Shown: positions 3,169-59,417, counted from the stretch's first letter. The stretch: DNA of 61,506 nucleotides from a bacterium (GCA_043719155.1 JAYSUJ010000038.1:1-61506), one strand, 5' to 3'. Made by a program: numbers and translations. The notes: generated from the letters alone by a model not told the origin.

Positions 3169-3987
3169 TTAAAGCCTTGAAAAATCCACCCCAAACTCCT
3201 CCTCTACAAACGAGAGAGTCTTTGGTTGCGCCGTTAGACTAGCCTTTATGAGCTGAGTAGTAAATAGTCCTGACTTTACTTTCCATTTGGCTTCAGACTT
3301 TTTGAAAGTTTTGCTCCAAGTTATACCTACTACATATTCAGATTTATCTATGTCATCTTGATTCTTAAATAATCCTGTTGATTCTAAATTGTATTCACTT
3401 AAATACTTATCTTTGTATTTAAAATCTTTAGCTTTAACGGCTGTTTCATTTACTTTCCCAACTCCAACATAGCCGTGATTCTTAAGATAAGCTACTACTA
3501 TGTCTCCTTTGTTTAAACTGCGTATTGGGTCACTCCATTTCGGATCTTGTCCGCCTGCAAGGAAGCCGTATTTGATAGAGTCTTCCCAAGATCAAAATAG
3601 ATCTTTACCTTCTCCTACATTTACATAATATATACCATTTTTAAAATCAAATTCTGGTAAGTCATCACGGTAGAGCGTAAAGTGTGGACGGAATTTATTT
3701 GCAAACATTCCACTAGATTTGTTAGTGAGTGTTCTACCTAATTTCCATATGAGTGTCTTTTCTATTAAAAATGCTTCTCGCTCAGTTAAATCTTTAGCTA
3801 TAACTCTTATCATAGGTTCTAAACCTTCTTTTTTGATAGCTTTGATACGCATAGCTTTCTCACTATCACTATCATCTTTTAAATGAGCTTCTTTTCTATT
3901 TCCTTTACCTTTACCATAGTAAAAGTCTTCGAAGTTACGAGGGTCGATGTAGACGTAGACGTAAAACTCAGAATTAATTTCTGTCAT
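3169..3987 (-). pseudogene. GIY-YIG nuclease gene with one in-frame TGA (either an interrupted or a recoded/readthrough gene)
   Basis: The track ORF 3592..3987 has a GIY-YIG motif (YVYVYID...YYGKGKGNR). Directly after its TGA the same frame stays open for about 140 more codons (SWEDSIKYGFLAGGQDPKW...EEEFGVDFSRL) down to a TAA at about 3169. That stretch has no ATG/GTG/TTG start until its last few codons. Confidence 0.6.
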
Positions 3988-4020
3988 ATATTTGTAGCGG
4001 TTTAAATATATTTAAAATTA

Positions 4021-4467
4021 TTAATCTTTTAATTCATCTAATAACTTTTTGAGCTTGTAAGGATTCGCTACATTGTATAGGACAACTTCTTCACCTCCAG
4101 ACCCTGCTGTATTTATAGCTATTGTTCCTGACTTTGTGAGCAGTCTTTGAAAGAAAGATTCGGATACAAAAACATCAGTTATTTTATTATAATCAATACT
4201 TGTTAAATTGGTAGACAGCCAACCTCTGTGTATAAGAACTCTTTTGTTTGTAAAAGCATAAATATTTGCTTTCTTTAAGTAAAAGAAATAATAGAAAGCT
4301 GGGAAAATTGCACCAAGTCCAAGTAAAGCTAATGTAAATATTCCGAGCACTATTGTCCAGAATCCTCCCCAGATATTTATATATCTGTTGCTTATAGAAA
4401 ATTCTTCTTTAATAATTTCATCTTTAGATAAAACTTTTTGCCAAGTGGCATTTGTTTGTGTATTCAT
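4021..4467 (-). CDS. Membrane protein with bacterial PH domain (YdbS/bPH_2-like)
   Basis: Two adjacent TM helices are followed by YAFTNKRVLIHRGWLS...IDYNKITDV, which is typical of bPH_2 proteins. Confidence 0.6.
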   Translation of the reverse strand: MNTQTNATWQKVLSKDEIIKEEFSISNRYINIWGGFWTIVLGIFTLALLGLGAIFPAFYYFFYLKKANIYAFTNKRVLIHRGWLSTNLTSIDYNKITDVFVSESFFQRLLTKSGTIAINTAGSGGEEVVLYNVANPYKLKKLLDELKD

Positions 4468-4526
4468 GTTTTTGTAGCGGATTTTTAAATTGATAAAAAG
4501 CGAAATAGAATCTTGAGCCTTGAGAC

Positions 4527-4634
4527 AAAAGACTCCTCGCCATTGTTGTAAAAGTATTTCTACTTTTACACATACCAGTTTCCTAGTACGACCGCTACAG
4601 TGACTCTGACGAGGAGTCTTTTATACTGTAGCGG
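4527..4634 (+). promoter_or_regulatory. Highly structured non-coding element (nested perfect inverted repeats)
   Basis: A 13-bp stem pairs 4527-4539 with 4610-4622. An inner 10-bp hairpin pairs 4547-4556 with 4561-4570. A competing 9-bp pairing joins 4592-4600 with 4626-4634. No ORF is present. Confidence 0.4.
4585..4610 (+). repeat. Direct repeat copy 1: AGTACGACCGCTACA(GTG)ACTCTGAC
   Basis: Near-identical to 10700-10723. The two copies bracket the DGR/AAA+/vWA module. Confidence 0.6.
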
Positions 4635-4783
4635 ATTTAAAACCGTATTTTTCTGAAAAAAAACCTTAGGTTTCGTATTTAGAATAATAGCATATTCTCT
4701 ACTATTATTCTACCTATATTATATCGCAGAACCTTGAAAAGTTAGAGGATTGATTTTTAATTTTATGATATAATATATCTATT

Positions 4784-5164
4784 ATGGAAAACTTACAAAC
4801 ATTTTTAGAAAAAATAGTAAGCACGACTTCGGTGTCAGCTATTATCACCAGCAAAGAAAATGTTTCTGAAATAGAAAAAGTTTTAACTTCAAACTCTTTT
4901 TCTAAAACAGAAAACATTGATAAATTACAAGATAATTTAATTTTAAAAAGAAAAGTATTCATTTCTGATATTTATGAAAATAATGTTTTAGATTGGTATG
5001 ATGTAGCACATGGATTTTCTAGTGGGCAAATAATAATCGAAGAAAAAAACATTCGCATAAATCCTAATTATGAAAAGATGAATATTATCTATATTCTAGA
5101 AAAAGAAATAGTAGAAAAATATCCAAAATTATTAGAAGTAATTTCATTAACTTTAACAATGTAA
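4784..5164 (+). CDS. Hypothetical protein, first gene of the DGR target operon
   Basis: ORF with an extended -10 box (TGATATAAT at about 4766-4774) 9 nt upstream of the ATG. A 4-nt gap separates it from the next CDS. Confidence 0.5.
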   Translation: MENLQTFLEKIVSTTSVSAIITSKENVSEIEKVLTSNSFSKTENIDKLQDNLILKRKVFISDIYENNVLDWYDVAHGFSSGQIIIEEKNIRINPNYEKMNIIYILEKEIVEKYPKLLEVISLTLTM

Positions 5165-43171: not shown

Positions 43172-44245
43172 TTACCCCAAGTTATAGGTATTACAAGAAA
43201 AAATGTACTGCTCAACAAAAATTTGCTTGAAGGCTTCTAGACTATTTTGTTCATAAAAAATAAGCACTGCCTCTCTGTATCTTTTTTCATCTACATCTCT
43301 GTATGAGAGTGGGGCTAAGCCCCCAGCCAAAAGCATGGCATTTGCAAACAGCCTACCCGTTCTTTTATTTCCATCTTCAAAAGCCTGTAGATAGCTGATG
43401 CATAAAATAGCAAGCAGTGCTTTAGAGTAAAAATCTTTTTTATTTTTAATTAATTCAATAAATCTTTTAACTTCTGCTTCTATTTGTGGACCCATTCCAA
43501 GTGGCAGATACTTGGTCCCCGTCACCCCAACGGCATTTTTACGTAGACCATGATTTATGCCCAAGCTTTCTACCAAAAGTCTATGTATATTTTCCAGCTC
43601 TCTAAAATTTTCTAAACTTTTTTCCATTTTAACGGACTCCAAAATATATGAAAAAGTTTTTTTGTGGTTTAAGATCATGGTCGTTTCATCTTTTGTATTA
43701 GAACTTGACACTACACCTTCTCTCAAAAGTTTTTCTGTGTCTAAAAGTGTATAAGTATTCCCTTCTATTTTAGATGATTTCCAAGAAAGTTCTATAACAA
43801 ATCTTTCCAATTCCTTTTTTACTATAACATCACTACTACCTGTCCCTTTATTTTTGAAAATTTCTGTATTTTTATTCAGAGTTTCCATTTCTTTTTCAGT
43901 AAAAATTTGTGTATTTTCTAAAATTTGGAAAAGATCGAAATTGTAAGTGGTGATGATATTTTCTCTTAAATCTAAATTAATAAAATAATCTTCAACTTTT
44001 AAAGACCTGTGTATTAAACCAAAATTAGATAAGGTATAAACGCTTCCTCTTTTTTCGCCTTCGATATTTAGAAAATTTAATTCTATTAAACTATTTAAGT
44101 CTCTTTTTAGAGTTGCAAGAGAAATTTTAGAATCCATGTCCACAGCTGAAAATTCCCCAATTTCAGAGATTGGGTATTTTTGTCCAAATTTGAATTTCTC
44201 TAGTAATCTTTCCTGTCTTTGTGTTATTTGTTTTAATTGGCTCAT
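43172..44245 (-). CDS. Fic/Doc-family protein with degenerate active-site motif (His replaced by Gln)
   Basis: QAFEDGNKRTGR stands where HxFx(D/E)GN(G/K)RxxR is expected. Confidence 0.7.
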   Translation of the reverse strand: MSQLKQITQRQERLLEKFKFGQKYPISEIGEFSAVDMDSKISLATLKRDLNSLIELNFLNIEGEKRGSVYTLSNFGLIHRSLKVEDYFINLDLRENIITTYNFDLFQILENTQIFTEKEMETLNKNTEIFKNKGTGSSDVIVKKELERFVIELSWKSSKIEGNTYTLLDTEKLLREGVVSSSNTKDETTMILNHKKTFSYILESVKMEKSLENFRELENIHRLLVESLGINHGLRKNAVGVTGTKYLPLGMGPQIEAEVKRFIELIKNKKDFYSKALLAILCISYLQAFEDGNKRTGRLFANAMLLAGGLAPLSYRDVDEKRYREAVLIFYEQNSLEAFKQIFVEQYIFSCNTYNLG

Positions 44246-46797: not shown

Positions 46798-47760
46798 TTA
46801 TCTCTCGATAAGTTTCATAATCAATTTTACAATATTTTCCTTGTATTCTGGGTTGCTTTCAGCCACTAAAATAGTGAAGGCTGTCAAGGCAGAAGGAGAG
46901 ACTTTACCCATGTCCAGCCTTTTGTTTTGTTCCAGATACCAAACAAAAGCAAATGCCCCACTCCTTTTATTGCCATCTGCAAAGGGGTGGTTTTTGATTA
47001 TGAAGTACAGTAGGTGGGCCGCTTTTTCTTCTACACTACCATACACATGTTTGCCACCAAAGCTTTGCATCACATTGCCCACTATCCCCTCCAAACTTTC
47101 TTTGTTTCTATCGGTCGCAAAAAGGTGTGTTGCTTCACCCTTTTTTATTAAAGTTTTTTTCAAATTTTCTATAGCCAATTTTAAATCACTAGCCACCAAG
47201 TCCACCTTGCTTTTAGTGACTTTTTTAAGTTCTAAATTTTGCTTATCGTATGAGTCGAGAGACAGCCAAGTATTTGCAAAAAGCTTTATAAGGTCAATGG
47301 TGTCTGAACTTTTTAAACTTTCTGCATTCTCTGGCAAAACTTTTTTAATTTCTTCTATCGTTTCTAGAAATTTTTCATAGTTTGCAGCTATTCTGCTTTT
47401 ATCTACAGTAAAACCATCTATTACATGAGTTTTTAGGACTTTTGTCGCCCATTGGCGAAATTCAGTCGCTTTTTTACTGTTTACCCTATAACCAACAGAG
47501 ATGATTGTGTCTAAACTATATATGTTCATTTCTCTAGATTTTCCATCTTTTGCAACCTGTGTAATTTTTGCACAGGTTGATTTTTCGTCCAACTCACCTT
47601 CTTTGTATATATTTTTAACATGTTTCACTACGACAGTTCTGTCAACATTGAAAATCTGGGCCATTTCATGAGCGTCAAGCCATAAGTTTTTCTCTTTTAT
47701 AAAAAAATTTACAGGTACATTAAATGTTTTATTGTAAATCGTAATTTTGTCATTTTTCAT
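46798..47760 (-). CDS. RhuM-like N-terminal domain fused to Doc/Fic domain
   Basis: N-terminus LDAHEMAQIF...YSLDTIISVGYRVNSKKATEFRQWATKVL is RhuM-like. The C-terminus has the intact motif HPFADGNKRSG. Confidence 0.7.
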   Translation of the reverse strand: MKNDKITIYNKTFNVPVNFFIKEKNLWLDAHEMAQIFNVDRTVVVKHVKNIYKEGELDEKSTCAKITQVAKDGKSREMNIYSLDTIISVGYRVNSKKATEFRQWATKVLKTHVIDGFTVDKSRIAANYEKFLETIEEIKKVLPENAESLKSSDTIDLIKLFANTWLSLDSYDKQNLELKKVTKSKVDLVASDLKLAIENLKKTLIKKGEATHLFATDRNKESLEGIVGNVMQSFGGKHVYGSVEEKAAHLLYFIIKNHPFADGNKRSGAFAFVWYLEQNKRLDMGKVSPSALTAFTILVAESNPEYKENIVKLIMKLIER

Positions 47761-47865: not shown

Positions 47866-49023
47866 ATGAAAAAAAAGCTGCTTTTAGCTACTCCAATTTA
47901 CCACCCAGACATAGGCGGACCTGCCACTTATGTAAAAGAGCTGGTTGAAAAGCTGGGAGATATTTATGACATATCTATTCTGACCTTTGGTGACCAGCTT
48001 TCACCTATTTTCCCAAACAGTAAACTTTTTTATGTTAACAAAAATTTATTTTTACCCATTAGACTTACTATTTATTTTTTAAAAAGCCTGAGACACGTCT
48101 ACACAAATGATTTAGTTTATGTGCAAAATGCTGTGGCAGCAGGCCTTCCGATTGCCCTTACTTGTAAAATTTTAAACAGAAAATTTCTTTTAAAATTTGT
48201 TGGCGACGAGGCCTGGGAAAGATCTGCCCAAAATGGGGACACCGAAAAAAAACTAGAGGACTTTTACTTGAACCCAGACAAAAACTTGCGTACTAAAATT
48301 TTTCTACAAATACAAAAGTTTGTTTTGCAGCAAGCCACAATTGTGACTACCCCCTCAAAATATTTGAGAGAAAGTATAATGAATTTCTATCAATTAAATC
48401 CAGATAAAACCTTAACCAATTACAACGCCTCGAACTTTGAAGTTTTAGATCACAGGGAATTGCAAAAAAATAATCATCAAATCATTACCACCGCCAGACT
48501 CACAAAGTTCAAAGGTGTTGATGGCATAATCCACGCTGTCAAAATCTTAAAAGAAAAATATAGTGATATTAATTTTGTAATTTGTGGAGAAGGCCCCGAA
48601 CTAGAAAATTTAACAAACTTAACAAAGGCACTAGACCTTGAAAGTAATGTTAAATTTTTAGGTAAAGTATCTCGTGATGAAACTTACAGACACAGAAAAG
48701 AGTCTGTGGTCTATGTTTTAAACTCTATCTATGAAGGTCTTCCCCATACTGCCCTCTCAACTTTTCAGGCTGAAATCCCCATTATTGCTACCAACATAGC
48801 CGGCACAAAAGAAGCTGTTTATGACAACGTCTCTGGTTTACTGGTTGAGCCAAACAATCCACAGATGCTTGCTGAAAAAATAAAAATAATCTTTGAGGAT
48901 TTTAATGCTGATAGAAAACTCTGTAACAAACTAGTTGCCGGCGGGACAAAGATATTGCATGAAAAATTCTCTTGGGAAAAACACATTGATAACCTTAAAA
49001 ACTTTTTTTTAAAAATTTCTTAA
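47866..49023 (+). CDS. GT4-family glycosyltransferase
   Basis: NSIYEGLPHTALSTFQAEIPIIAT motif. A TATAAT box lies 7 nt upstream of the ATG. Confidence 0.8.
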   Translation: MKKKLLLATPIYHPDIGGPATYVKELVEKLGDIYDISILTFGDQLSPIFPNSKLFYVNKNLFLPIRLTIYFLKSLRHVYTNDLVYVQNAVAAGLPIALTCKILNRKFLLKFVGDEAWERSAQNGDTEKKLEDFYLNPDKNLRTKIFLQIQKFVLQQATIVTTPSKYLRESIMNFYQLNPDKTLTNYNASNFEVLDHRELQKNNHQIITTARLTKFKGVDGIIHAVKILKEKYSDINFVICGEGPELENLTNLTKALDLESNVKFLGKVSRDETYRHRKESVVYVLNSIYEGLPHTALSTFQAEIPIIATNIAGTKEAVYDNVSGLLVEPNNPQMLAEKIKIIFEDFNADRKLCNKLVAGGTKILHEKFSWEKHIDNLKNFFLKIS

Positions 49024-49991
49024 ATTTTATTATTTTCTTTATACCAAACAACAAACTTTTTAATACCGTCTTCAAACTTGGTCTTTGGTTTCCAATTTAA
49101 AATTCTTAAAGCTTTTTTTGTGTTAGCATGAGTATTTTCCACTGAGGCAGAGTGAGACATTCTGGAAACCACCTTGGCTTTTAGTCCTAAAACTTTTTCT
49201 GTCATTTTCAACAGATCTTTTAGGGCAACTGGTGAAGAGTTGCCAATATTCAAAACCTCGAAACCCACTTTCTTTGCAATACTTTTATTAACAGCATCTA
49301 CTATGTCTCCTACGTAGGTATAGTCACGCTTACGTATCCCCTTGCCAGAAATTTCTACCGTCTGTCCATTTAGAATAGTTTTTACCCATTTATACAAAAC
49401 CAAGTTTGGTCTCATCCTAGGGCCGTAGGCATTGAAAATACGCAAAACAACAATGGGCATTTTAAAGTTATGATGATAGGTGTGAGCTAAAACTTCCCCA
49501 GCTTTTTTGGTTGCTCCGTAAGGAGAAATAGCAAAGTCGGCCTGCATCTCCTCCGTAAACGGAGCCTTGTTTTTGTTTCCATACACAGACGACGAAGAAA
49601 AGAAAATTAATTTATTAACTTCAACATTTTTAGCAGACTCTAGTAAATTCAAAGTGCCGGTTATATTTGTATCTATATATTTGTGAGGCTCTAAAACCGC
49701 ATTTCTGGTGTCAGCAATCGCTGCTAGATGCACCACCACAGACGGTTTGTATTTTTGAAATATCTCCTCTACTTTTTTTCCATCTTTTAAATCTACCTCA
49801 AAAAATACCAACTTTGCATTGCTTAAATTGTGTCTGATATTTATTTTCTTGTCATCACTCTCCACGGGAAGAGTGAGATTGTCTATGACTATGACTTTTC
49901 CCCATTTTTTGTTCTTTAATACATCGTCCAAAAAATGCGAGCCAATAAAACCTGCCCCACCTGTTATCAAAATAGTTTTTTCGTTGGACAT
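49020..49991 (-). CDS. NAD-dependent sugar epimerase/dehydratase (SDR)
   Basis: GGAGFIGSH Rossmann motif, SSSSVYG, and YGATK (YxxxK). Confidence 0.85.
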   Translation of the reverse strand: MSNEKTILITGGAGFIGSHFLDDVLKNKKWGKVIVIDNLTLPVESDDKKINIRHNLSNAKLVFFEVDLKDGKKVEEIFQKYKPSVVVHLAAIADTRNAVLEPHKYIDTNITGTLNLLESAKNVEVNKLIFFSSSSVYGNKNKAPFTEEMQADFAISPYGATKKAGEVLAHTYHHNFKMPIVVLRIFNAYGPRMRPNLVLYKWVKTILNGQTVEISGKGIRKRDYTYVGDIVDAVNKSIAKKVGFEVLNIGNSSPVALKDLLKMTEKVLGLKAKVVSRMSHSASVENTHANTKKALRILNWKPKTKFEDGIKKFVVWYKENNKI

Positions 49992-50079: not shown

Positions 50080-50793
50080 ATGTTAGTTAATCTAAAAATG
50101 AGATTATTTGAGTCTTTACAATTTTTTTACAAAAAAAGATTTAAATCATTCTTCATGACAAAAGTCATCCACAAATACATAGAAAATTTTAACACTCCAA
50201 ATGGGGAGGATTTAATTTACAGAGACTTTCAACTTAGCAGTGAGAGTCGCCACCGAAATCACCAAACACCCCTTAGTCAACTTAGATTTTTAGAAATTTT
50301 CCTAACAAACCTTAGTCCCAAAAATATACTTGAGGTTGGCACATTCGTTGGTTACACCACCTATAGACTTGCTAAATATTTTCCAAATTGCCAAGTCACC
50401 ACAATTGAAAAAGAACACAAGTACGCTGCATCTGCTCAGGTAATGTGGAAAAAATATTGCCCAACCTCAGAAATCGAAATTAAAGAAGGCGACGGAAAAC
50501 TTGTCCTAAAGCAACTAATCTTAGACCAGAAACAGTTTGATTGTATTTATATCGATGCTAACAAATCTGAGTATATAGAATATTTTAAGTCAGCACTACA
50601 ACTAAGAAGCCCAAAGGGTTATATAATCGTTGACAACGTCCTTTGGGCTGGACTAACTGCTTACCCAAACACCAGTTTTTCACACCCAAAGATCATGAAC
50701 GACTTGGTCGAGTTAGTAAAATCTCTCGAGCTAGAATTTTCAATTATCCCAGCCTGGGATGGATTACTCATTTGCCAACCTTCAGATAAGTAG
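50080..50793 (+). CDS. Class I (cation-dependent type) O-methyltransferase
   Basis: LEVGTFVGYTT motif I and CIYIDANKSEY. Confidence 0.7.
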   Translation: MLVNLKMRLFESLQFFYKKRFKSFFMTKVIHKYIENFNTPNGEDLIYRDFQLSSESRHRNHQTPLSQLRFLEIFLTNLSPKNILEVGTFVGYTTYRLAKYFPNCQVTTIEKEHKYAASAQVMWKKYCPTSEIEIKEGDGKLVLKQLILDQKQFDCIYIDANKSEYIEYFKSALQLRSPKGYIIVDNVLWAGLTAYPNTSFSHPKIMNDLVELVKSLELEFSIIPAWDGLLICQPSDK

Positions 50794-50814: not shown

Positions 50815-52029
50815 ATGAGAGAGAAAAACACCGGGACTGTACTTTTAAAAAATATGAACGCAGAAGTGCTTAAGAACTGGAAACAGCAATTTGGAAAGAA
50901 GCCGTATTTGGAATCAGTCTGGAGAAGAACCCAAGAAAGCTACAATACAAATAAATCGGGGTGGAAAAGTGAAGAGGACTTTCGAAGACGCATGGTCCAG
51001 TTTAAGTATGATTTTGCAGTCATTAAACAAGAAGGGAGTAATAATTTGATTTGCAAGAAGATGTTTATCTGGCTACATCTTTCCCTTCCAAAAGTTGAAC
51101 TTGAAAAATATCTAAAGAGAAACATAGATATTCTTAAAAAGAATAGATACACAGAAAATGATGCTGACATATTTACTAAAAAAGAATACACTGTTTCATT
51201 CAAAAAAAATATCCCAAGTAAACTAGACCTTGAAAATGGAACACAAGAAAAATTTACCAAGAAAGGCTATGAGACCTTAGAAATGTTAATTAGTAATTAT
51301 GAAGTTCGGGAGACAGCTCTGGGAAAGCCCTGGGAAACGCTGGAGGTTGGTTATAGAAAAATCTTGAAATCAGGTACTCCTGAAATAAAACCACTTTCTG
51401 TCGATTTGATCGAGCAGTACTTGCCCGCTGAAGTAGAGATCGGCTCTGGTGCGTCATACGAAATAGGTGTTCCACCTCTACACAACTTGCACCACTATTT
51501 TTATGTAAGTGACGAAGGTAAAAATTTTTACCTTGGGGGAGATAATGACAATCTCTTAAAAGACTTTAGTGACAATGAAGATATTTTTTTAAAGAAAACT
51601 TGTAAAGTGGTAACTAAATCCATCAAGGTAAAAGAGGGTGTTTTTCTTAAAAACTTGTACAAAATGTATAAGCAAAAAAAGTTTATAGGCAAGATAAACG
51701 TTAACAGCTTTGATGGATTACACTTAAGGAGCGGGTTAATTAAAGAGAAATTCCTGAGAGAATGGAGCAAAGACAAACTTCGCCCAATCTTTGAAAGACA
51801 AAAAAAATCAAAGGCCCTGTTTGTAGTTGGTTTACATGCCGATAGGCGACAAACTCAGCAATATGCAAGAGAACAAGGTTTGCAGATAATCCATATTGAT
51901 TCTGAGGGTTTTGAAAAAGATACTTTTATCAAGAACTACGCAAAGGAGTCCCTACAAGATGGAGATATTTTAATCCGAGCAAAAGCTTCTGAATTTGGGA
52001 AGGTTCTAGCTAAAATCCTTAAAAAATAA
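50815..52029 (+). CDS. Divergent SIR2-like (sirtuin-fold) protein, paralog 1, with unknown N-terminal domain
   Basis: EIGSGASYEIGVPPL compares with GAGxSxxxGIPxFR. INVNSFDGLHLRSG compares with TQNIDGLHxRAG. FVVGLHADRR is also present. No Cys4 zinc module. Confidence 0.55.
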   Translation: MREKNTGTVLLKNMNAEVLKNWKQQFGKKPYLESVWRRTQESYNTNKSGWKSEEDFRRRMVQFKYDFAVIKQEGSNNLICKKMFIWLHLSLPKVELEKYLKRNIDILKKNRYTENDADIFTKKEYTVSFKKNIPSKLDLENGTQEKFTKKGYETLEMLISNYEVRETALGKPWETLEVGYRKILKSGTPEIKPLSVDLIEQYLPAEVEIGSGASYEIGVPPLHNLHHYFYVSDEGKNFYLGGDNDNLLKDFSDNEDIFLKKTCKVVTKSIKVKEGVFLKNLYKMYKQKKFIGKINVNSFDGLHLRSGLIKEKFLREWSKDKLRPIFERQKKSKALFVVGLHADRRQTQQYAREQGLQIIHIDSEGFEKDTFIKNYAKESLQDGDILIRAKASEFGKVLAKILKK

Positions 52030-52042
52030 CCCACCCACCCAC

Positions 52043-53257
52043 ATGAAACTACCCCTTGTTTTATCGAGCCGGGACAGAAAAATCGGACTTACTAGATGGA
52101 AAAAACAATTTGCAAAGAACCCCAGGCAAGAGGTTATCTGGAGAAGAAACCAAATACCAGCAAACAAAGACATTTCAAACTGGAAAACAGCAGAGGATTC
52201 TAGGTGGCGTATCTTACATGCAATAGACTCATACTCACTCAAAACAAACGGATTGAAGCAGGTAAATTTCTGTTTGAAAAGTATGTATCTTTGTATTAAC
52301 CACTGTTTACCAAGACAAGAATTAGCTGAGGTTTATAGTAACGCACTTAAGCAAATTGAATCCAGAAATTTTAAAGAAATAAAGACTCTACACAAAACTG
52401 TTTTTAAAAAAAAAGACCTCAGAGTAGAAGTGACACACTTAGACACACAAGAAAAGAAGGACAAATTTTATCCAAACATTTCCCCTAATTACGAAATCTT
52501 GGATATTAAACTTTTTTTTGGGAAAAATAAACTTACAATAGAAAAAAAGTCGTCTCCGTGGATGGCTCTCAAGAGTGGTATAAGAGTCAGAAAAGAAAGA
52601 GGAAAACCAACTTATACAAAATCAATTCGGGAAATCCAAAAATATTTACCTTGCCAAGTAGAATTAGGCAGTGGAGTTTCAACTGAACTTGGTATACCCC
52701 CTATAAATTATTTATACGACACATATCAGGTTACCAACAGAGAAACAGGAAAACTAATTTTCGGCATTGAAGACACCCTATTTGAAAAAATTATCAATGA
52801 CGTAGAGAGTTTCCTGCAAAAAACCTCCAAGGTAATGGTTTCTGCCTGGGAAGCAAATGAGAACTCTATTTTTTATATGCTACTTAAAAAAGGTATTGAG
52901 AAAGGGGTTTTTCTGCAGCCAATTATAACCAACAACTACGATAATATACTTAAGCTTCATAACATAAAAATAAATACCATTCGTAGATTTGACGAGAAAA
53001 AGGTGGACACTTTTCGTTTTCACCCAAAGGCTAAATCACTTCTAGTTATAGGGGTTCACGCTGACAGAAGAAATATCCATGATCTAGCTAGAAAATCAGG
53101 TCTCAAAGTAATTTTTGTCGACCCGGAGGTTTACTTAGAAAGCTCTGGCAGGCAAACCAAATATCAACTTGAATCCCCCCAAGATGGGGATCTCATATTC
53201 AACCTTACGGCGTCAGAGTTTGCAAAGATATTTAGCCAGGAAATTATTGATATCTAG
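52043..53257 (+). CDS. Divergent SIR2-like (sirtuin-fold) protein, paralog 2
   Basis: ELGSGVSTELGIPPI, IITNNYDNILKLH, LVIGVHADRR. Same 404 aa length as paralog 1 and colinear with it. Confidence 0.55.
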   Translation: MKLPLVLSSRDRKIGLTRWKKQFAKNPRQEVIWRRNQIPANKDISNWKTAEDSRWRILHAIDSYSLKTNGLKQVNFCLKSMYLCINHCLPRQELAEVYSNALKQIESRNFKEIKTLHKTVFKKKDLRVEVTHLDTQEKKDKFYPNISPNYEILDIKLFFGKNKLTIEKKSSPWMALKSGIRVRKERGKPTYTKSIREIQKYLPCQVELGSGVSTELGIPPINYLYDTYQVTNRETGKLIFGIEDTLFEKIINDVESFLQKTSKVMVSAWEANENSIFYMLLKKGIEKGVFLQPIITNNYDNILKLHNIKINTIRRFDEKKVDTFRFHPKAKSLLVIGVHADRRNIHDLARKSGLKVIFVDPEVYLESSGRQTKYQLESPQDGDLIFNLTASEFAKIFSQEIIDI

Positions 53258-57253: not shown

Positions 57254-58491
57254 TGAGTATGAAGAAAAAGAAGATTTTAATTTTTACCCTCTTTTACTAC
57301 CCCAACCCAGTTTCTGGTGCTGAAGTTGCTGTAAGGGAAATTACTGACAGACTTAAAAATGAAGATTATGAATTCCACGCGTTGACAATGCGAGGCACCA
57401 CTGGGCTAAAAAATTCTTCCCAGGAGGAAAACGTTCTGGTACATAGAATTTTTCCTGGAATAAATACAAAGCCAACCCTTGGTGATTTTGCAAAGTTTCC
57501 CTACAATTTTTACAAAAAATTTTTTCAAATTTTTGCTGGTTTAAAGGCTGTTCAACTGCATTTAAAATATAAGTACGAGGCAATCTGGGTTTTAATGCCC
57601 CACTCTGCTGGTGCCCCAGCTGGATTATTTAATTTATTTTTTCCAAAAATACCTATAATTTTAACCCTGCAAGAGGGTGACCCGATAAACGAAATTGAAA
57701 AAAGTGTTTTACCCCTATGGCCGCTCTTCACTCGTGTTTTTAAAAAAGCTACGGTAGTTCAAGCTATCTCCAGCTATCTCGGTGACTGGGCAAGGGTCAG
57801 AGGCTCGAAATGCCCTATACACGTGATTTATAACGGTGCAAATGAAAACGACTTTAAAGAAAATTTGGATGAGGATCTGATGCAAAAAATGCGTCAAAAA
57901 ATTAGTAAAAAATCTGACGAAGTGATATTGGTTACAGTTTCGAGATTAGTAGAAAAAAATGCTATCGATGATGTTATAAATTCTTTAGTGTATTTACCTA
58001 ATAAAATAAAATTTATTATTGCTGGAGATGGTGAAGACTTGGCTAAACTAACTCAACTAAAAACTAAATTGAAACTAGAAAATAGGGTTACTTTTCTGGG
58101 ACAAATTGACAGGAATGAAACTGCTGTTTTGAGAAGACTCGGGGATATTTTTGTGAGGCCCTCGCGAAGTGAGGGCCTCGGGAACTCTTTCGCTGGAGCT
58201 TTTGCTGCAAAAATACCAGTTATTGCTACCCAAGAAGGAGGCATTGCCGAATTTCTTTTTGATAAAAACAGAAATCCAAAACGGGCAGCCACTGGTTTTG
58301 CTGTCGACAAAAACTCACCTACTCAAATAGCAGACCAAGTCAAGTTTATATTGGCCAATCCAGAAATTACCAAGGAAACGGTAAACAATGCTTACAATTT
58401 AGTACTGGAAAAATACCGTTGGGACAGCATAGCGAAAGAAATGAAAGAAAAAATATTTGATTATGTATTAAAAGGTAAAGTAAAAATATGA
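57253..58491 (+). CDS. GT4-family glycosyltransferase (probable ATG start at 57259)
   Basis: RPSRSEGLGNSFAGAFAAKIPVIAT motif. Confidence 0.8.
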   Translation: MSMKKKKILIFTLFYYPNPVSGAEVAVREITDRLKNEDYEFHALTMRGTTGLKNSSQEENVLVHRIFPGINTKPTLGDFAKFPYNFYKKFFQIFAGLKAVQLHLKYKYEAIWVLMPHSAGAPAGLFNLFFPKIPIILTLQEGDPINEIEKSVLPLWPLFTRVFKKATVVQAISSYLGDWARVRGSKCPIHVIYNGANENDFKENLDEDLMQKMRQKISKKSDEVILVTVSRLVEKNAIDDVINSLVYLPNKIKFIIAGDGEDLAKLTQLKTKLKLENRVTFLGQIDRNETAVLRRLGDIFVRPSRSEGLGNSFAGAFAAKIPVIATQEGGIAEFLFDKNRNPKRAATGFAVDKNSPTQIADQVKFILANPEITKETVNNAYNLVLEKYRWDSIAKEMKEKIFDYVLKGKVKI

Positions 58492-59417
58492 AAAAAGGAG
58501 AAATCTTAAGGGAAAAAAAAATTGGGTTTATTGGCCAAGGTTTTATTGGTAAAAGTTACAGTGACGACTTTGAGTCGAGAGGTTTTCTGGTTGTTAGATA
58601 TTCACTTGACCTAGAATATGTTGGAAACAAAGAAGAACTTCTAAACTGTAAAGTTGTTTTTGTAGCTGTAAATGCAGCAACAAAACCACTTGAAGGACAG
58701 TTGCGGGATGACGGCAACCAGAAGACTTTTTTTGATGACAGTAATATTAAGGCGGTAATACCTTTAACAAAACCAGGTACTGTAATTATTTTAAAATCTA
58801 CCCTACCCCCAGGAAAAACAGTTGAGATTCAAAAACTTTTTCCAGATAGGAAAATTTTTCATTCTCCTGAATTTCTAACAGAAATGACCGCAAAAGATGA
58901 CGCTAAAAAACCTATGCGAAATATTGTTGGTGTGCCGGAAATGTCAGCTGAAAACATAGAAATAGCCAGCGAAATACTGACAATGTTTCCACACTCTGAC
59001 TATCAAAAGGTTTTACCATCTACTGCAGCTGAATTAATAAAATACGGTGCCAACGCTTTTCTATTTGTGAAAATTCTTTTTTCCAATGTTTTTTACGAGC
59101 TTGCCGAAAAACACGGGCAGGATTGGGACATTATAAGGGAGGCAATAGGGGTAGACCCCAGAATAACTCCACATCATATGGACCTACATTTAAAAAATGA
59201 CCCCACAGGAGTTATGAACAGGAGAGGAGCCGGAAGAAGTTGTTTTATAAAAGACATGGCCGAGCTTTCCGAACTTTTTGCCACCGACCTTCCACATGAA
59301 AAAACTAGTTTAGAACTCTTGAGAACCATGGAAAAGAAAAACAGCGAGCTATTACAAAAGTTCAATAGATATTTAAATATTTTAGAAAGTGTTTACGGGG
59401 AAAAGCCGTTGAAGTAA
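58488..59417 (+). CDS. Short UDP-glucose/GDP-mannose dehydrogenase-like protein
   Basis: GFIGQGFIG Rossmann motif, SPEFLTE...PMRNIVG, and the catalytic-Cys loop GAGRSCFIKD. At only 309 aa, the C-terminal nucleotide-sugar domain appears to be missing. Confidence 0.6.
   Translation: MKKGEILREKKIGFIGQGFIGKSYSDDFESRGFLVVRYSLDLEYVGNKEELLNCKVVFVAVNAATKPLEGQLRDDGNQKTFFDDSNIKAVIPLTKPGTVIILKSTLPPGKTVEIQKLFPDRKIFHSPEFLTEMTAKDDAKKPMRNIVGVPEMSAENIEIASEILTMFPHSDYQKVLPSTAAELIKYGANAFLFVKILFSNVFYELAEKHGQDWDIIREAIGVDPRITPHHMDLHLKNDPTGVMNRRGAGRSCFIKDMAELSELFATDLPHEKTSLELLRTMEKKNSELLQKFNRYLNILESVYGEKPLK

Follow-up and report, generated by a model that had tools for sequence, protein, structure and literature searches.

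Known proteins of the sirtuin (SIR2) fold act on other proteins as deacylases or ADP-ribosyltransferases (SirTM), or deplete nicotinamide adenine dinucleotide (NAD) as effectors of defence. Class M sirtuins (SirTM) carry Gln instead of the catalytic His, show no deacylase activity and are robust in ADP-ribosyl transfer (Rack et al. 2015, PMC4518038); the N99-equivalent Asn and an Arg are needed, a conserved Arg acts near the nicotinamide ribose, and the enzymes are linked or fused to an ADP-ribose-processing macrodomain. A described system from glycan biosynthesis is gPRT-PRP (Kelly et al., PMC11127046), in which a glycan phosphoribosyltransferase dependent on phosphoribosyl pyrophosphate (PRPP) and a HAD phosphoribose phosphatase together make up ribofuranosyltransferases. 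The subject of this report is a tandem pair of genes, coding for the proteins P1 and P2, at positions 50,815 to 53,257 of a 61,506-nucleotide (nt) stretch of bacterial DNA (GCA_043719155.1 JAYSUJ010000038.1:1-61506; "the window" means this whole stretch), together with the protein family to which both belong. The family is a distinct, uncharacterised branch of the sirtuin fold, new in its N-terminal domain and in its biological context, and the evidence supports a role in sugar or glycan biosynthesis, not in phage defence.

The sirtuin-related domain and its missing parts

A first-pass annotation, made by a model from the sequence alone, had placed two adjacent open reading frames (ORFs) of 404 amino acids (aa) at this site. 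Both were found on the + strand at exactly these positions, and the GxGxS, NxD, HADRR and N-terminal motifs quoted for them all lay where they had been reported. P1 and P2 are true paralogs, not a chance match, since they are 31 % identical (124/401) over residues 19-400 (BLASTP, E 9e-50). A novel N-terminal domain (N-domain, about aa 1-195) and a sirtuin-fold C-terminal domain (C-domain, about aa 200-404) make up P1. The genes and their motifs are listed here, with E values from the family hidden Markov model (HMM) and with positions in the classical sirtuin Sir2Tm given for comparison.

50815..52029, + strand: P1, ORF of 404 aa, the divergent copy (family HMM E 7e-131)
52043..53257, + strand: P2, ORF of 404 aa, nearer to the canonical Patescibacteria members (family HMM E 3e-140)
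51442..51477, + strand: P1 NAD-phosphate loop GxGxS...GxPP, GSGASYEIGVPP, aa 210-221, aligned with Sir2Tm G21-P31
52667..52702, + strand: P2 NAD-phosphate loop GxGxS...GxPP, GSGVSTELGIPP, aa 209-220
51703..51720, + strand: P1 NSFDGL, aa 297-302, aligned to Sir2Tm Q98-N99-I100-D101, with Ser at the N99 equivalent
52931..52948, + strand: P2 NNYDNI, aa 297-302, TNNxD motif intact
51757..51759, + strand: P1 Arg315 codon, directly after strand 311-313, invariant in the family and in a sister family
51829..51849, + strand: P1 GLHADRR loop, aa 339-345, in place of the sirtuin G188-S189-S190 loop
53051..53071, + strand: P2 GVHADRR loop, aa 337-343

Scanned singly against Pfam, NCBIfam and the PDB (phmmer), P1 and P2 gave no match, with no Pfam family at E <= 1. 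Profile searches were run with a 46-sequence family alignment (A1). All 20 of the PDB matches listed for this profile (E <= 10) were sirtuins, of which Sir2Tm was the best (E 1.2e-4). The Pfam sirtuin family PF02146 was touched by 25 of the 46 members (best E 6.6e-8); a few C-domain relatives just reached 24-26 bits, and both window proteins stayed below the gathering threshold. Alignment of A1 to the Sir2Tm sequence (identical to 1yc5_A) using hhalign had a probability of 95.8 % (E 6.9e-9) and paired P1 residues 209-308 with Sir2Tm 20-108. In this pairing G210/G212/S214...G218-P221 fall on Sir2Tm G21/G23/S25...G29-P31, with LH in the family replacing FR, and the family TNNFD falls on Q98-N99-I100-D101. 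P1 was modelled with AlphaFold2 (predicted local distance difference test score, pLDDT, 91.5; predicted template modelling score, pTM, 0.90), and the best eight Foldseek matches of this model in the PDB were all sirtuins (Sir2Tm, SIRT2, SIRT3, SIRT5; probability 0.97-1.0). On the strength of the profile matches in the PDB, the PF02146 matches, the hhalign pairing, the AlphaFold2 model and the Foldseek result, remote homology of the C-terminal half to the sirtuin Rossmann domain is supported. The SIR2-like fold proposed in the first pass, which was to stand or fall by whether profile searches recovered it, is thereby upheld.

Two sirtuin features are kept. The NAD-phosphate loop (GAGxS...GIPxFR, within the Rossmann fold) is present, and in the (T)QNxD motif the N99-equivalent Asn is 97 % and the Asp 100 % conserved across the family; sirtuins hold and strain the nicotinamide moiety with the residues to which these two correspond, N99 and D101. 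P1 and its orthologs carry Ser at the N99 position, so that P1 reads VNS-F-D vs TNN-F-D in the family, and P2 keeps TNNYD.

The remaining features of a deacylase are missing. The catalytic His that follows beta3 in sirtuins (H116 in Sir2Tm) is absent, and the model predicts that its topological slot is occupied by Arg315, which lies directly behind strand 311-313 (DSSP of the model) and is invariant in the family alignment. Strands 311-313 and 334-338 are only about 18 residues apart in the model, which leaves no room for a zinc module of about 40 residues, and no Cys lies between them in either paralog. The cysteines (only C80 and C263 in P1; C77, C84, C88 and C204 in P2) bear out the claim that both proteins lack the Cys4 zinc module. 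A G-x-H-A-D-R-R loop, with H, D, R and R invariant in the family, takes the place of sirtuin G188-S189-S190; HADRR had been described as part of a conserved strand, but the model puts it in a loop and at the start of a helix (strand 334-338, helix 345-353). A sister family that shares the C-domain keeps GSGxS, (T/S)DNxD, the same Arg and xxDRR and likewise has no His, so the whole clade is without the deacylase machinery.

Among described proteins the best match is to the classical sirtuins (Sir2Tm/CobB, PF02146), in which GxGxS...GIP and (T)QNxD stand in the same order. The first-pass statement that the motifs are spaced much more closely than in deacylases holds for the second half of the domain, compressed to 39 aa between NxD and the GSS-equivalent loop (87 aa in Sir2Tm), but not for the first half, where GxG and NxD are 88 aa apart (78 aa in Sir2Tm). 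The family also differs from the classical enzymes in its extra N-domain, which has no known relative. Because the nearest sequence and fold relatives are Sir2Tm, Sir2-Af, HST2 and SIRT2/3/5, one has to consider a classical NAD+-dependent lysine deacylase to which a domain for substrate recognition has been added. This reading is scarcely credible, given that the catalytic His, the zinc module and the GSS loop are all absent, that neither window protein receives any Pfam score, that the operon context is one of sugar metabolism, and that in SirTM loss of the His abolishes deacylation (PMC4518038).

The likeness to SirTM extends to the sirtuin Rossmann fold, the GxG loop, the NxD motif, the replacement of the catalytic His, a conserved Arg, and close genetic linkage, with fusion now and then, to a partner of ADP-ribose-processing type. 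The replacing residue is Gln in SirTM (QG motif), whereas it is Arg in the family; SirTM keeps the zinc domain and a GVGx[NT]TP loop, whereas the family has no zinc module and the HADRR loop. The partner is a macrodomain in SirTM and a Nudix-fold protein, in some lineages only, in the family. SirTM acts on a lipoylated protein target from within a lipoylation operon, whereas the family is found in sugar operons with methyltransferases, family 4 glycosyltransferases (GT4s) and short-chain dehydrogenases/reductases (SDRs), and SirTM is without the N-terminal domain of about 195 aa. Since the QG motif and the zinc domain are absent and no macrodomain appeared in Pfam scans of the neighbours, the family would at most work like SirTM and does not belong to that class.

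The N-domain (residues 1-195 of P1) has an alpha/beta fold with long hairpins. W36, R38, Q40, S48, W173 and R181 are invariant, as is a WRRxQ motif; the N-terminal motifs read WKQQFGK and VWRRTQ in P1 and WKKQFAK and IWRRNQ in P2. Modelled alone, the domain had a pLDDT of 83.6. It gave no Pfam or NCBIfam match and no credible fold match in the PDB (Foldseek best E 0.13, TM-score <= 0.33), in agreement with the earlier remark that the first 200 or so residues resemble nothing recognisable, and it is novel within Pfam, NCBIfam, the PDB and the viral structure library BFVD. The weak top matches of the model (50815-51402) in the PDB and BFVD were phage baseplate, Dit-like and tail-tube N-terminal domains, a likeness that recurs and is not significant (probability <= 0.6, TM-score <= 0.33).

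Operon context and proposed chemistry of the family

A word-indexed protein search returned 45 homologs of about 400 aa, every one of them labelled 'hypothetical protein', and an exhaustive HMM search of 1.84 billion proteins returned 306 representatives at 50 % identity. The family occurs in Patescibacteria, more than 45 Streptomyces species, Acidobacteriota, Myxococcota, Gemmatimonadota, Alphaproteobacteria, Bacillota, Bdellovibrionales and others. No Pfam or NCBIfam model, source annotation or paper describing it was found (full-text literature searches). For comparison of loci, one genome was taken per species, which gave 113 relatives and 80 loci that were kept, and further contigs were added. 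ORFs within 6 kb of the family gene were clustered, and the loci were sorted into 41 independent taxon groups.

The recurrent neighbours are biosynthetic. A methyltransferase dependent on S-adenosylmethionine (SAM) lies directly upstream in 15 of the 41 groups, a slot filled by three non-orthologous methyltransferase families; a GT4 is near the family gene in 11 groups, and a Nudix-fold protein (cluster c1, Nudix box ...PGGxI...(R)E(F/L)xEExG(I/V)) is directly downstream in nine. Three neighbour clusters recur in 9-11 groups, and two of these, MT23 and c1, abut the gene at median distances of 28 and 38 nt. The GT4 abuts it in the type A loci described below; over all loci its median distance is about 1.7 kb, a figure raised by the four GT4 copies of the window. 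Stop and start codons overlap at many of these junctions, and translational coupling of the family gene with methyltransferases, GT4s and the Nudix-fold protein is found across phyla. As an internal control, clusters whose median distance exceeds 2 kb recur in four groups at most.

Several arrangements can be told apart. In type A (Acidobacteriota, Myxococcota, Gemmatimonadota) the order is methyltransferase, family gene, GT4 and aldo/keto reductase, with stop and start codons mostly overlapping. Type B runs methyltransferase, family gene, c1, c58, sugar-1-phosphate nucleotidyltransferase, GT4, class-IV aminotransferase, HAD phosphatase, inositol-monophosphatase-family (IMPase) phosphatase, APH-type kinase and PhyH dioxygenase, and is found in Acetobacteraceae, Hyphomicrobiales, Nocardia and S. 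tateyamensis and in partial form in Bacillota, Bdellovibrionales and others. In type C (most Streptomyces), helix-turn-helix regulators precede the family gene and a UDP-glucose dehydrogenase follows it. In Patescibacteria, an O-methyltransferase precedes the family gene in the window and in loci L017 and L019, and a gene resembling UDP-glucose dehydrogenase is upstream in L008 and L066.

Gene fusions repeat these partnerships. P0084 joins a complete family protein to a c1-type Nudix domain (Pfam 21.7 bits vs a cutoff of 21.1; c1 HMM E 5.5e-60), and in P0168 and P0174 the C-domain is fused to epimerase/RmlD-type SDRs. The sister family (about 350 aa; P0165-P0189, loci L089-L101) has a shorter N-terminus with part of the N-domain (WGWKRD motif) and is an uncharacterised family of Alphaproteobacteria, Cyanobacteria, Solirubrobacterales and Burkholderia. 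In its loci, which were found with a narrow alignment (A4), an RmlD-type SDR precedes the gene in 11 of 13 cases, and a GT4 or a DinB-like gene often follows. In two Bacillota loci (L014, 12403-14010; L023, 11982-15594) the family-Nudix pair stands with ATP-grasp ligases, an AMP-binding enzyme, a major facilitator superfamily transporter and a DUF2920 hydrolase. In L014 the c1 Nudix gene is present as two tandem paralogs, and both loci look like a small-molecule biosynthetic cluster, not a glycan locus.

The presence of the family in sugar and glycan operons across phyla makes NAD-dependent sugar chemistry probable, and a glycan-linked activity dependent on NAD or a nucleotide, which the first-pass annotation had offered as its second alternative, gains support from both operons and fusions. 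We infer an enzyme that serves the biosynthesis of sugars, glycans or metabolites derived from sugars, cleaving NAD+ and transferring ADP-ribose in the manner of SirTM, and we give this proposal about an even chance. By analogy with SirTM, ADP-ribosyl transfer, not deacylation, is the most likely chemistry. The enzyme would cleave NAD+ and move the ADP-ribosyl unit to an acceptor of sugar, sugar-phosphate or glycan type. Where a Nudix partner is present or fused, it could then cut the pyrophosphate and leave a phosphoribosyl product and AMP, HAD or IMPase phosphatases could dephosphorylate that product, the flanking methyltransferase could methylate it and the GT4 could extend it. In the Patescibacteria-like lineage of the window, the retained and diverged pair would act as a heteromer or provide two specificities. 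The data themselves establish homology, fold, motif pattern, distribution and gene linkage; NAD+ cleavage, ADP-ribosyl transfer, the class of acceptor and the role of the pair are inferred from them.

A wider version of the proposal is quite improbable as a whole. In it, the family would be the central enzyme of a route, not recognised before, by which bacteria use NAD+ to build sugar units into glycans and natural products. ADP-ribose would be put on a sugar or glycan acceptor and trimmed to a ribosyl or phosphoribosyl residue that can be methylated, and in the candidate-phyla-radiation lineage of the window the enzyme would be a heterodimer of complementarily degenerated subunits. The route would be an analogue of gPRT-PRP, where a ribosyl phosphate is moved to a glycan and then dephosphorylated, in glycan loci with glycosyltransferases; the family co-occurs with Nudix, HAD and IMPase proteins that could do equivalent trimming. 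The analogy is hypothetical and one of function only, as fold and donor are unrelated (PRPP there, presumably NAD+ here). 

A fourth, widespread sirtuin-fold branch tied to sugar and glycan operons would extend NAD+-consuming chemistry to glycobiology and natural-product biosynthesis. The surface glycans of Patescibacteria are essentially unknown, and there the family would point to an uncommon modification within an extensive glycan island. The family is open to direct test, both in cultivable Streptomyces, which carry a single copy beside a UDP-glucose dehydrogenase, and through the natural Nudix fusion.

Several observations weigh against SirTM-like chemistry. NAD+ binding by the family is itself read from motif conservation. 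P1 is without the N99-equivalent Asn that SirTM and sirtuins need. The Arg-for-His equivalence is one of predicted topology, not of superposition, because the Sir2Tm alignment stops at G108, before the catalytic H116. The TM-scores from Foldseek are modest (0.40-0.53 when normalised to the target), and NAD(P) is used uncleaved by other members of the fold superfamily, with transhydrogenase dIII among the fold matches. A family-Nudix module, meaning a c1 gene directly downstream or fused, is present in nine taxon groups and in P0084; the window, most Patescibacteria loci and the type A operons have no Nudix partner, so Nudix trimming cannot be a universal step. In the window, no match to the c1 HMM, no c58 homolog and no Nudix box was found. 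Several Patescibacteria loci are without any conserved context.

The main rival is a pocket that binds a nucleotide without cleaving NAD+. Its ligand would be NAD(P)(H), serving as redox cofactor, or an NDP- or ADP-sugar (NDP, nucleoside diphosphate), serving as substrate or effector, and the protein would act in the adjacent sugar pathway as oxidoreductase, transferase or regulatory subunit. The non-cleaving NAD(P) users of the superfamily speak for it, with transhydrogenase dIII reaching Foldseek probabilities of 0.66-0.94 among the lower matches, as does the missing catalytic His. The SDR fusions and adjacency, the GT4s and the UDP-glucose dehydrogenase fit an NDP-sugar ligand equally well, and Nudix enzymes hydrolyse NDP-sugars too. 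It is nevertheless unlikely, for the N99 and D101 equivalents are 97-100 % conserved and aligned to the sirtuin motif at 95.8 % probability, and sequence and fold searches both rank sirtuins first, ahead of dIII and other branches. In addition, SirTM still cleaves NAD+ without the His (PMC4518038).

The first-pass annotation had favoured an anti-phage pair of NAD+-depleting SIR2 effectors, and stand-alone SIR2 domains are indeed NADase effectors in Thoeris, DSR, SIR2-HerA and SPARSA. The defence proteins (ThsA, DSR1/2, SIR2-HerA, SPARSA) resemble the family in having a SIR2-type Rossmann domain, in several cases without the canonical zinc ribbon, and in being fused to domains that are not sirtuins. 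P2 has a weak PADLOC SIR2 match (E 6.7e-4, 16.6 bits) confined to 64 residues (243-306), DSR2 appears far down the fold list (probability 0.35-0.38), and Fic and RhuM genes are found elsewhere in the island of the window. In one further locus (L070, 11242-13989, a Bdellovibrionales metagenome-assembled genome, MAG), a 635-aa helicase of UvrD type, with weak matches to STAND-NTPases, comes after the family gene and its Nudix partner; this is the only defence-like context among the loci.

Against these points, PADLOC returned nothing for P1, the defence-type Pfam family SIR2_2 was matched by none of the 46 members, and comparison with BFVD gave no significant viral protein match. The catalytic-His slot holds an invariant Arg, and the characterised defence SIR2 NADases are reported to need a catalytic Asn and His. 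The conserved partners are methyltransferases, GT4s, Nudix proteins, SDRs, aminotransferases and phosphatases, not sensors, helicases or TIR and pAgo proteins; the sensor or partner genes (TIR, HerA, pAgo) and defence islands that accompany the known systems were not seen for the family. In Streptomyces the neighbours are the same in 49 loci (cluster 3, UDP-glucose dehydrogenase type), a pattern of vertical inheritance and not of a shuffled defence island. With PADLOC close to null, the His missing and the conserved neighbours biosynthetic, an anti-phage function is very unlikely, and the defence idea was given up in favour of sugar or glycan biosynthesis.

The tandem pair as a lineage-specific elaboration

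Copies were counted with the family HMM over all ORFs of each locus, without an overlap filter. Apart from the window, two full copies are present only in L087, which is closely related and whose genes (403 and 398 aa) are 3 nt apart. L088, another close relative, ends 171 nt into the second gene, with a fragment 62 % identical to the P2 N-terminus, and an independent assembly (L103) reproduces the arrangement. All 86 other loci examined hold a single copy, so the two-gene system suggested in the first pass fails at the level of the family, through the very outcome (unpaired, single homologs) that the first pass had named as refuting it; the tandem pair is an elaboration of a wider family, specific to the Patescibacteria-like lineage of the window. 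The family gene is split into two ORFs in L010 (10070-11197, Inordinaticella fortuita) and L025 (8111-9331, a Hyphomicrobiales MAG), for which a frameshift, a pseudogene or an assembly error could be the cause. Unannotated neighbours of about 400 aa in L004 and L005 were considered as second copies and rejected by the family HMM, and long ORFs in L026 and L085 (623 and 650 aa), considered as fusions, proved to be over-extended calls with Arg-rich junk N-termini.

P2 is 40-44 % identical to members from Nomurabacteria, Paceibacterota and other Patescibacteria; its nearest relatives are the second copy of L087 (L087_2, 50 %), P0027 (44 %) and L036/L057 (40-41 %). P1 belongs to a long-branch clade with the first copy of L087 (L087_1) and L088 that is only 33-34 % identical to everything else. 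The two are not sisters in a neighbour-joining (NJ) tree, where the clade of their most recent common ancestor takes in 29 of 187 sequences, and one copy may therefore have been acquired instead of duplicated in place. Neither copy appears to be decaying, given that orthologs are 64-69 % identical for P1 and 50 % for P2.

Conservation was audited over 68 columns that are at least 85 % conserved. Every strictly invariant residue is kept in both P1 and P2, and each paralog deviates at 11-12 of the 68 columns (family median 3, 90th percentile 11). In the NAD pocket, P1 deviates at T295V and at N297S, the N99 equivalent; the deviations of P2 are L220I and H224Y together with G291Q, G306N, E309I and P322D. 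The pocket sites at which P1 and P2 deviate do not overlap. Judged from these sequences, the divergent losses are compatible with a heteromer and with two specificities equally.

An obligate heteromer, in which each subunit would have lost a different part of the ancestral function, would be confined to the lineage of the window and is on balance doubtful. In its favour, the pair is kept in all three members of the lineage with the independent assembly in agreement, the two genes are closely spaced (13 nt in the window, 3 nt in L087), and both copies retain the invariant residues, show no decay and differ from the family at separate pocket sites. The opposing points are that a single gene product works in the 86 other loci, that sirtuin-fold enzymes are mostly monomeric, and that P1 and P2, not being sisters, may include an acquired copy. 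Two enzymes with different acceptors are an equally simple reading because the island has five GT4s and several methyltransferases.

The 13-nt spacer between P1 and P2 (window 52030-52042) is CCCACCCACCCAC, that is (CCCA)3C, a C-rich tetranucleotide repeat in a genome of 33 % GC. The repeat is unique in the window (1 match vs 0.1 expected), and no obvious Shine-Dalgarno sequence was seen in the spacer.

The glycan island around the pair

The pair lies inside a glycan island of about 20 kb (39.7-59.4 kb of the window), which agrees with the glycan locus placement of the first pass, in that an SDR epimerase, a Methyltransf_3 O-methyltransferase, GT4s and an IMPase flank it. Within it are a Wzx-type flippase, two SAM methyltransferases, five GT4s, two SDR epimerases, the Methyltransf_3 O-methyltransferase, the IMPase-family phosphatase and a gene of the UDP-glucose/GDP-mannose-dehydrogenase family. 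The sugar-nucleotide enzyme classes linked to the family elsewhere are represented here too. Neighbouring features are as follows.

50080..50793, + strand: Methyltransf_3, cation-dependent O-methyltransferase family (Pfam E 4.7e-30), 21 nt upstream of P1
53304..54449, + strand: GT4 glycosyltransferase, 46 nt downstream of P2; an ortholog follows the pair in L087
54446..55540, + strand: 364-aa ORF without a family, overlapping the GT4 stop by 4 nt, in the same gene string
49020..49991, - strand: divergently transcribed NDP-sugar epimerase/dehydratase (SDR), conserved beside the pair in L087, L088 and L103
55537..56382, - strand: inositol-monophosphatase-family phosphatase (Pfam), with homologs in the L034 and L025 operons that hold the family gene
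58488..59417, + strand: UDP-glucose/GDP-mannose dehydrogenase-family gene, the neighbour type directly behind the Streptomyces family gene
43172..44245, - strand: Fic-domain gene between GT4 genes
46798..47760, - strand: Fic-domain gene between GT4 genes

The string O-methyltransferase, P1, P2, GT4 and 364-aa ORF has spacers of 21, 13, 46 and -4 nt. No terminator-like site was found on the + strand within it; counts of terminator and promoter sites do not exceed chance and so say nothing firm about co-transcription. The 364-aa ORF gave no Pfam match and no PDB sequence match, and BLASTP showed no relation to the L034 APH kinase or to c58. It contains HNDFVPHN...VLDHSS, which we take to recall the HxDxxxxN...D catalytic loop of phosphotransferases of the APH/choline-kinase type. 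In the dehydrogenase ORF at 58488-59417 (309 aa), the N-terminal and central domains match and the C-terminal domain does not, so the gene may be truncated or a variant.

One of the two Fic genes also carries RhuM and Bro-N domains, and the two look like mobile or toxin-type insertions. In the glycan locus of the single-copy homolog P0008 (L001), an AbiEi/AbiEii toxin-antitoxin pair is inserted at 3606-4897.

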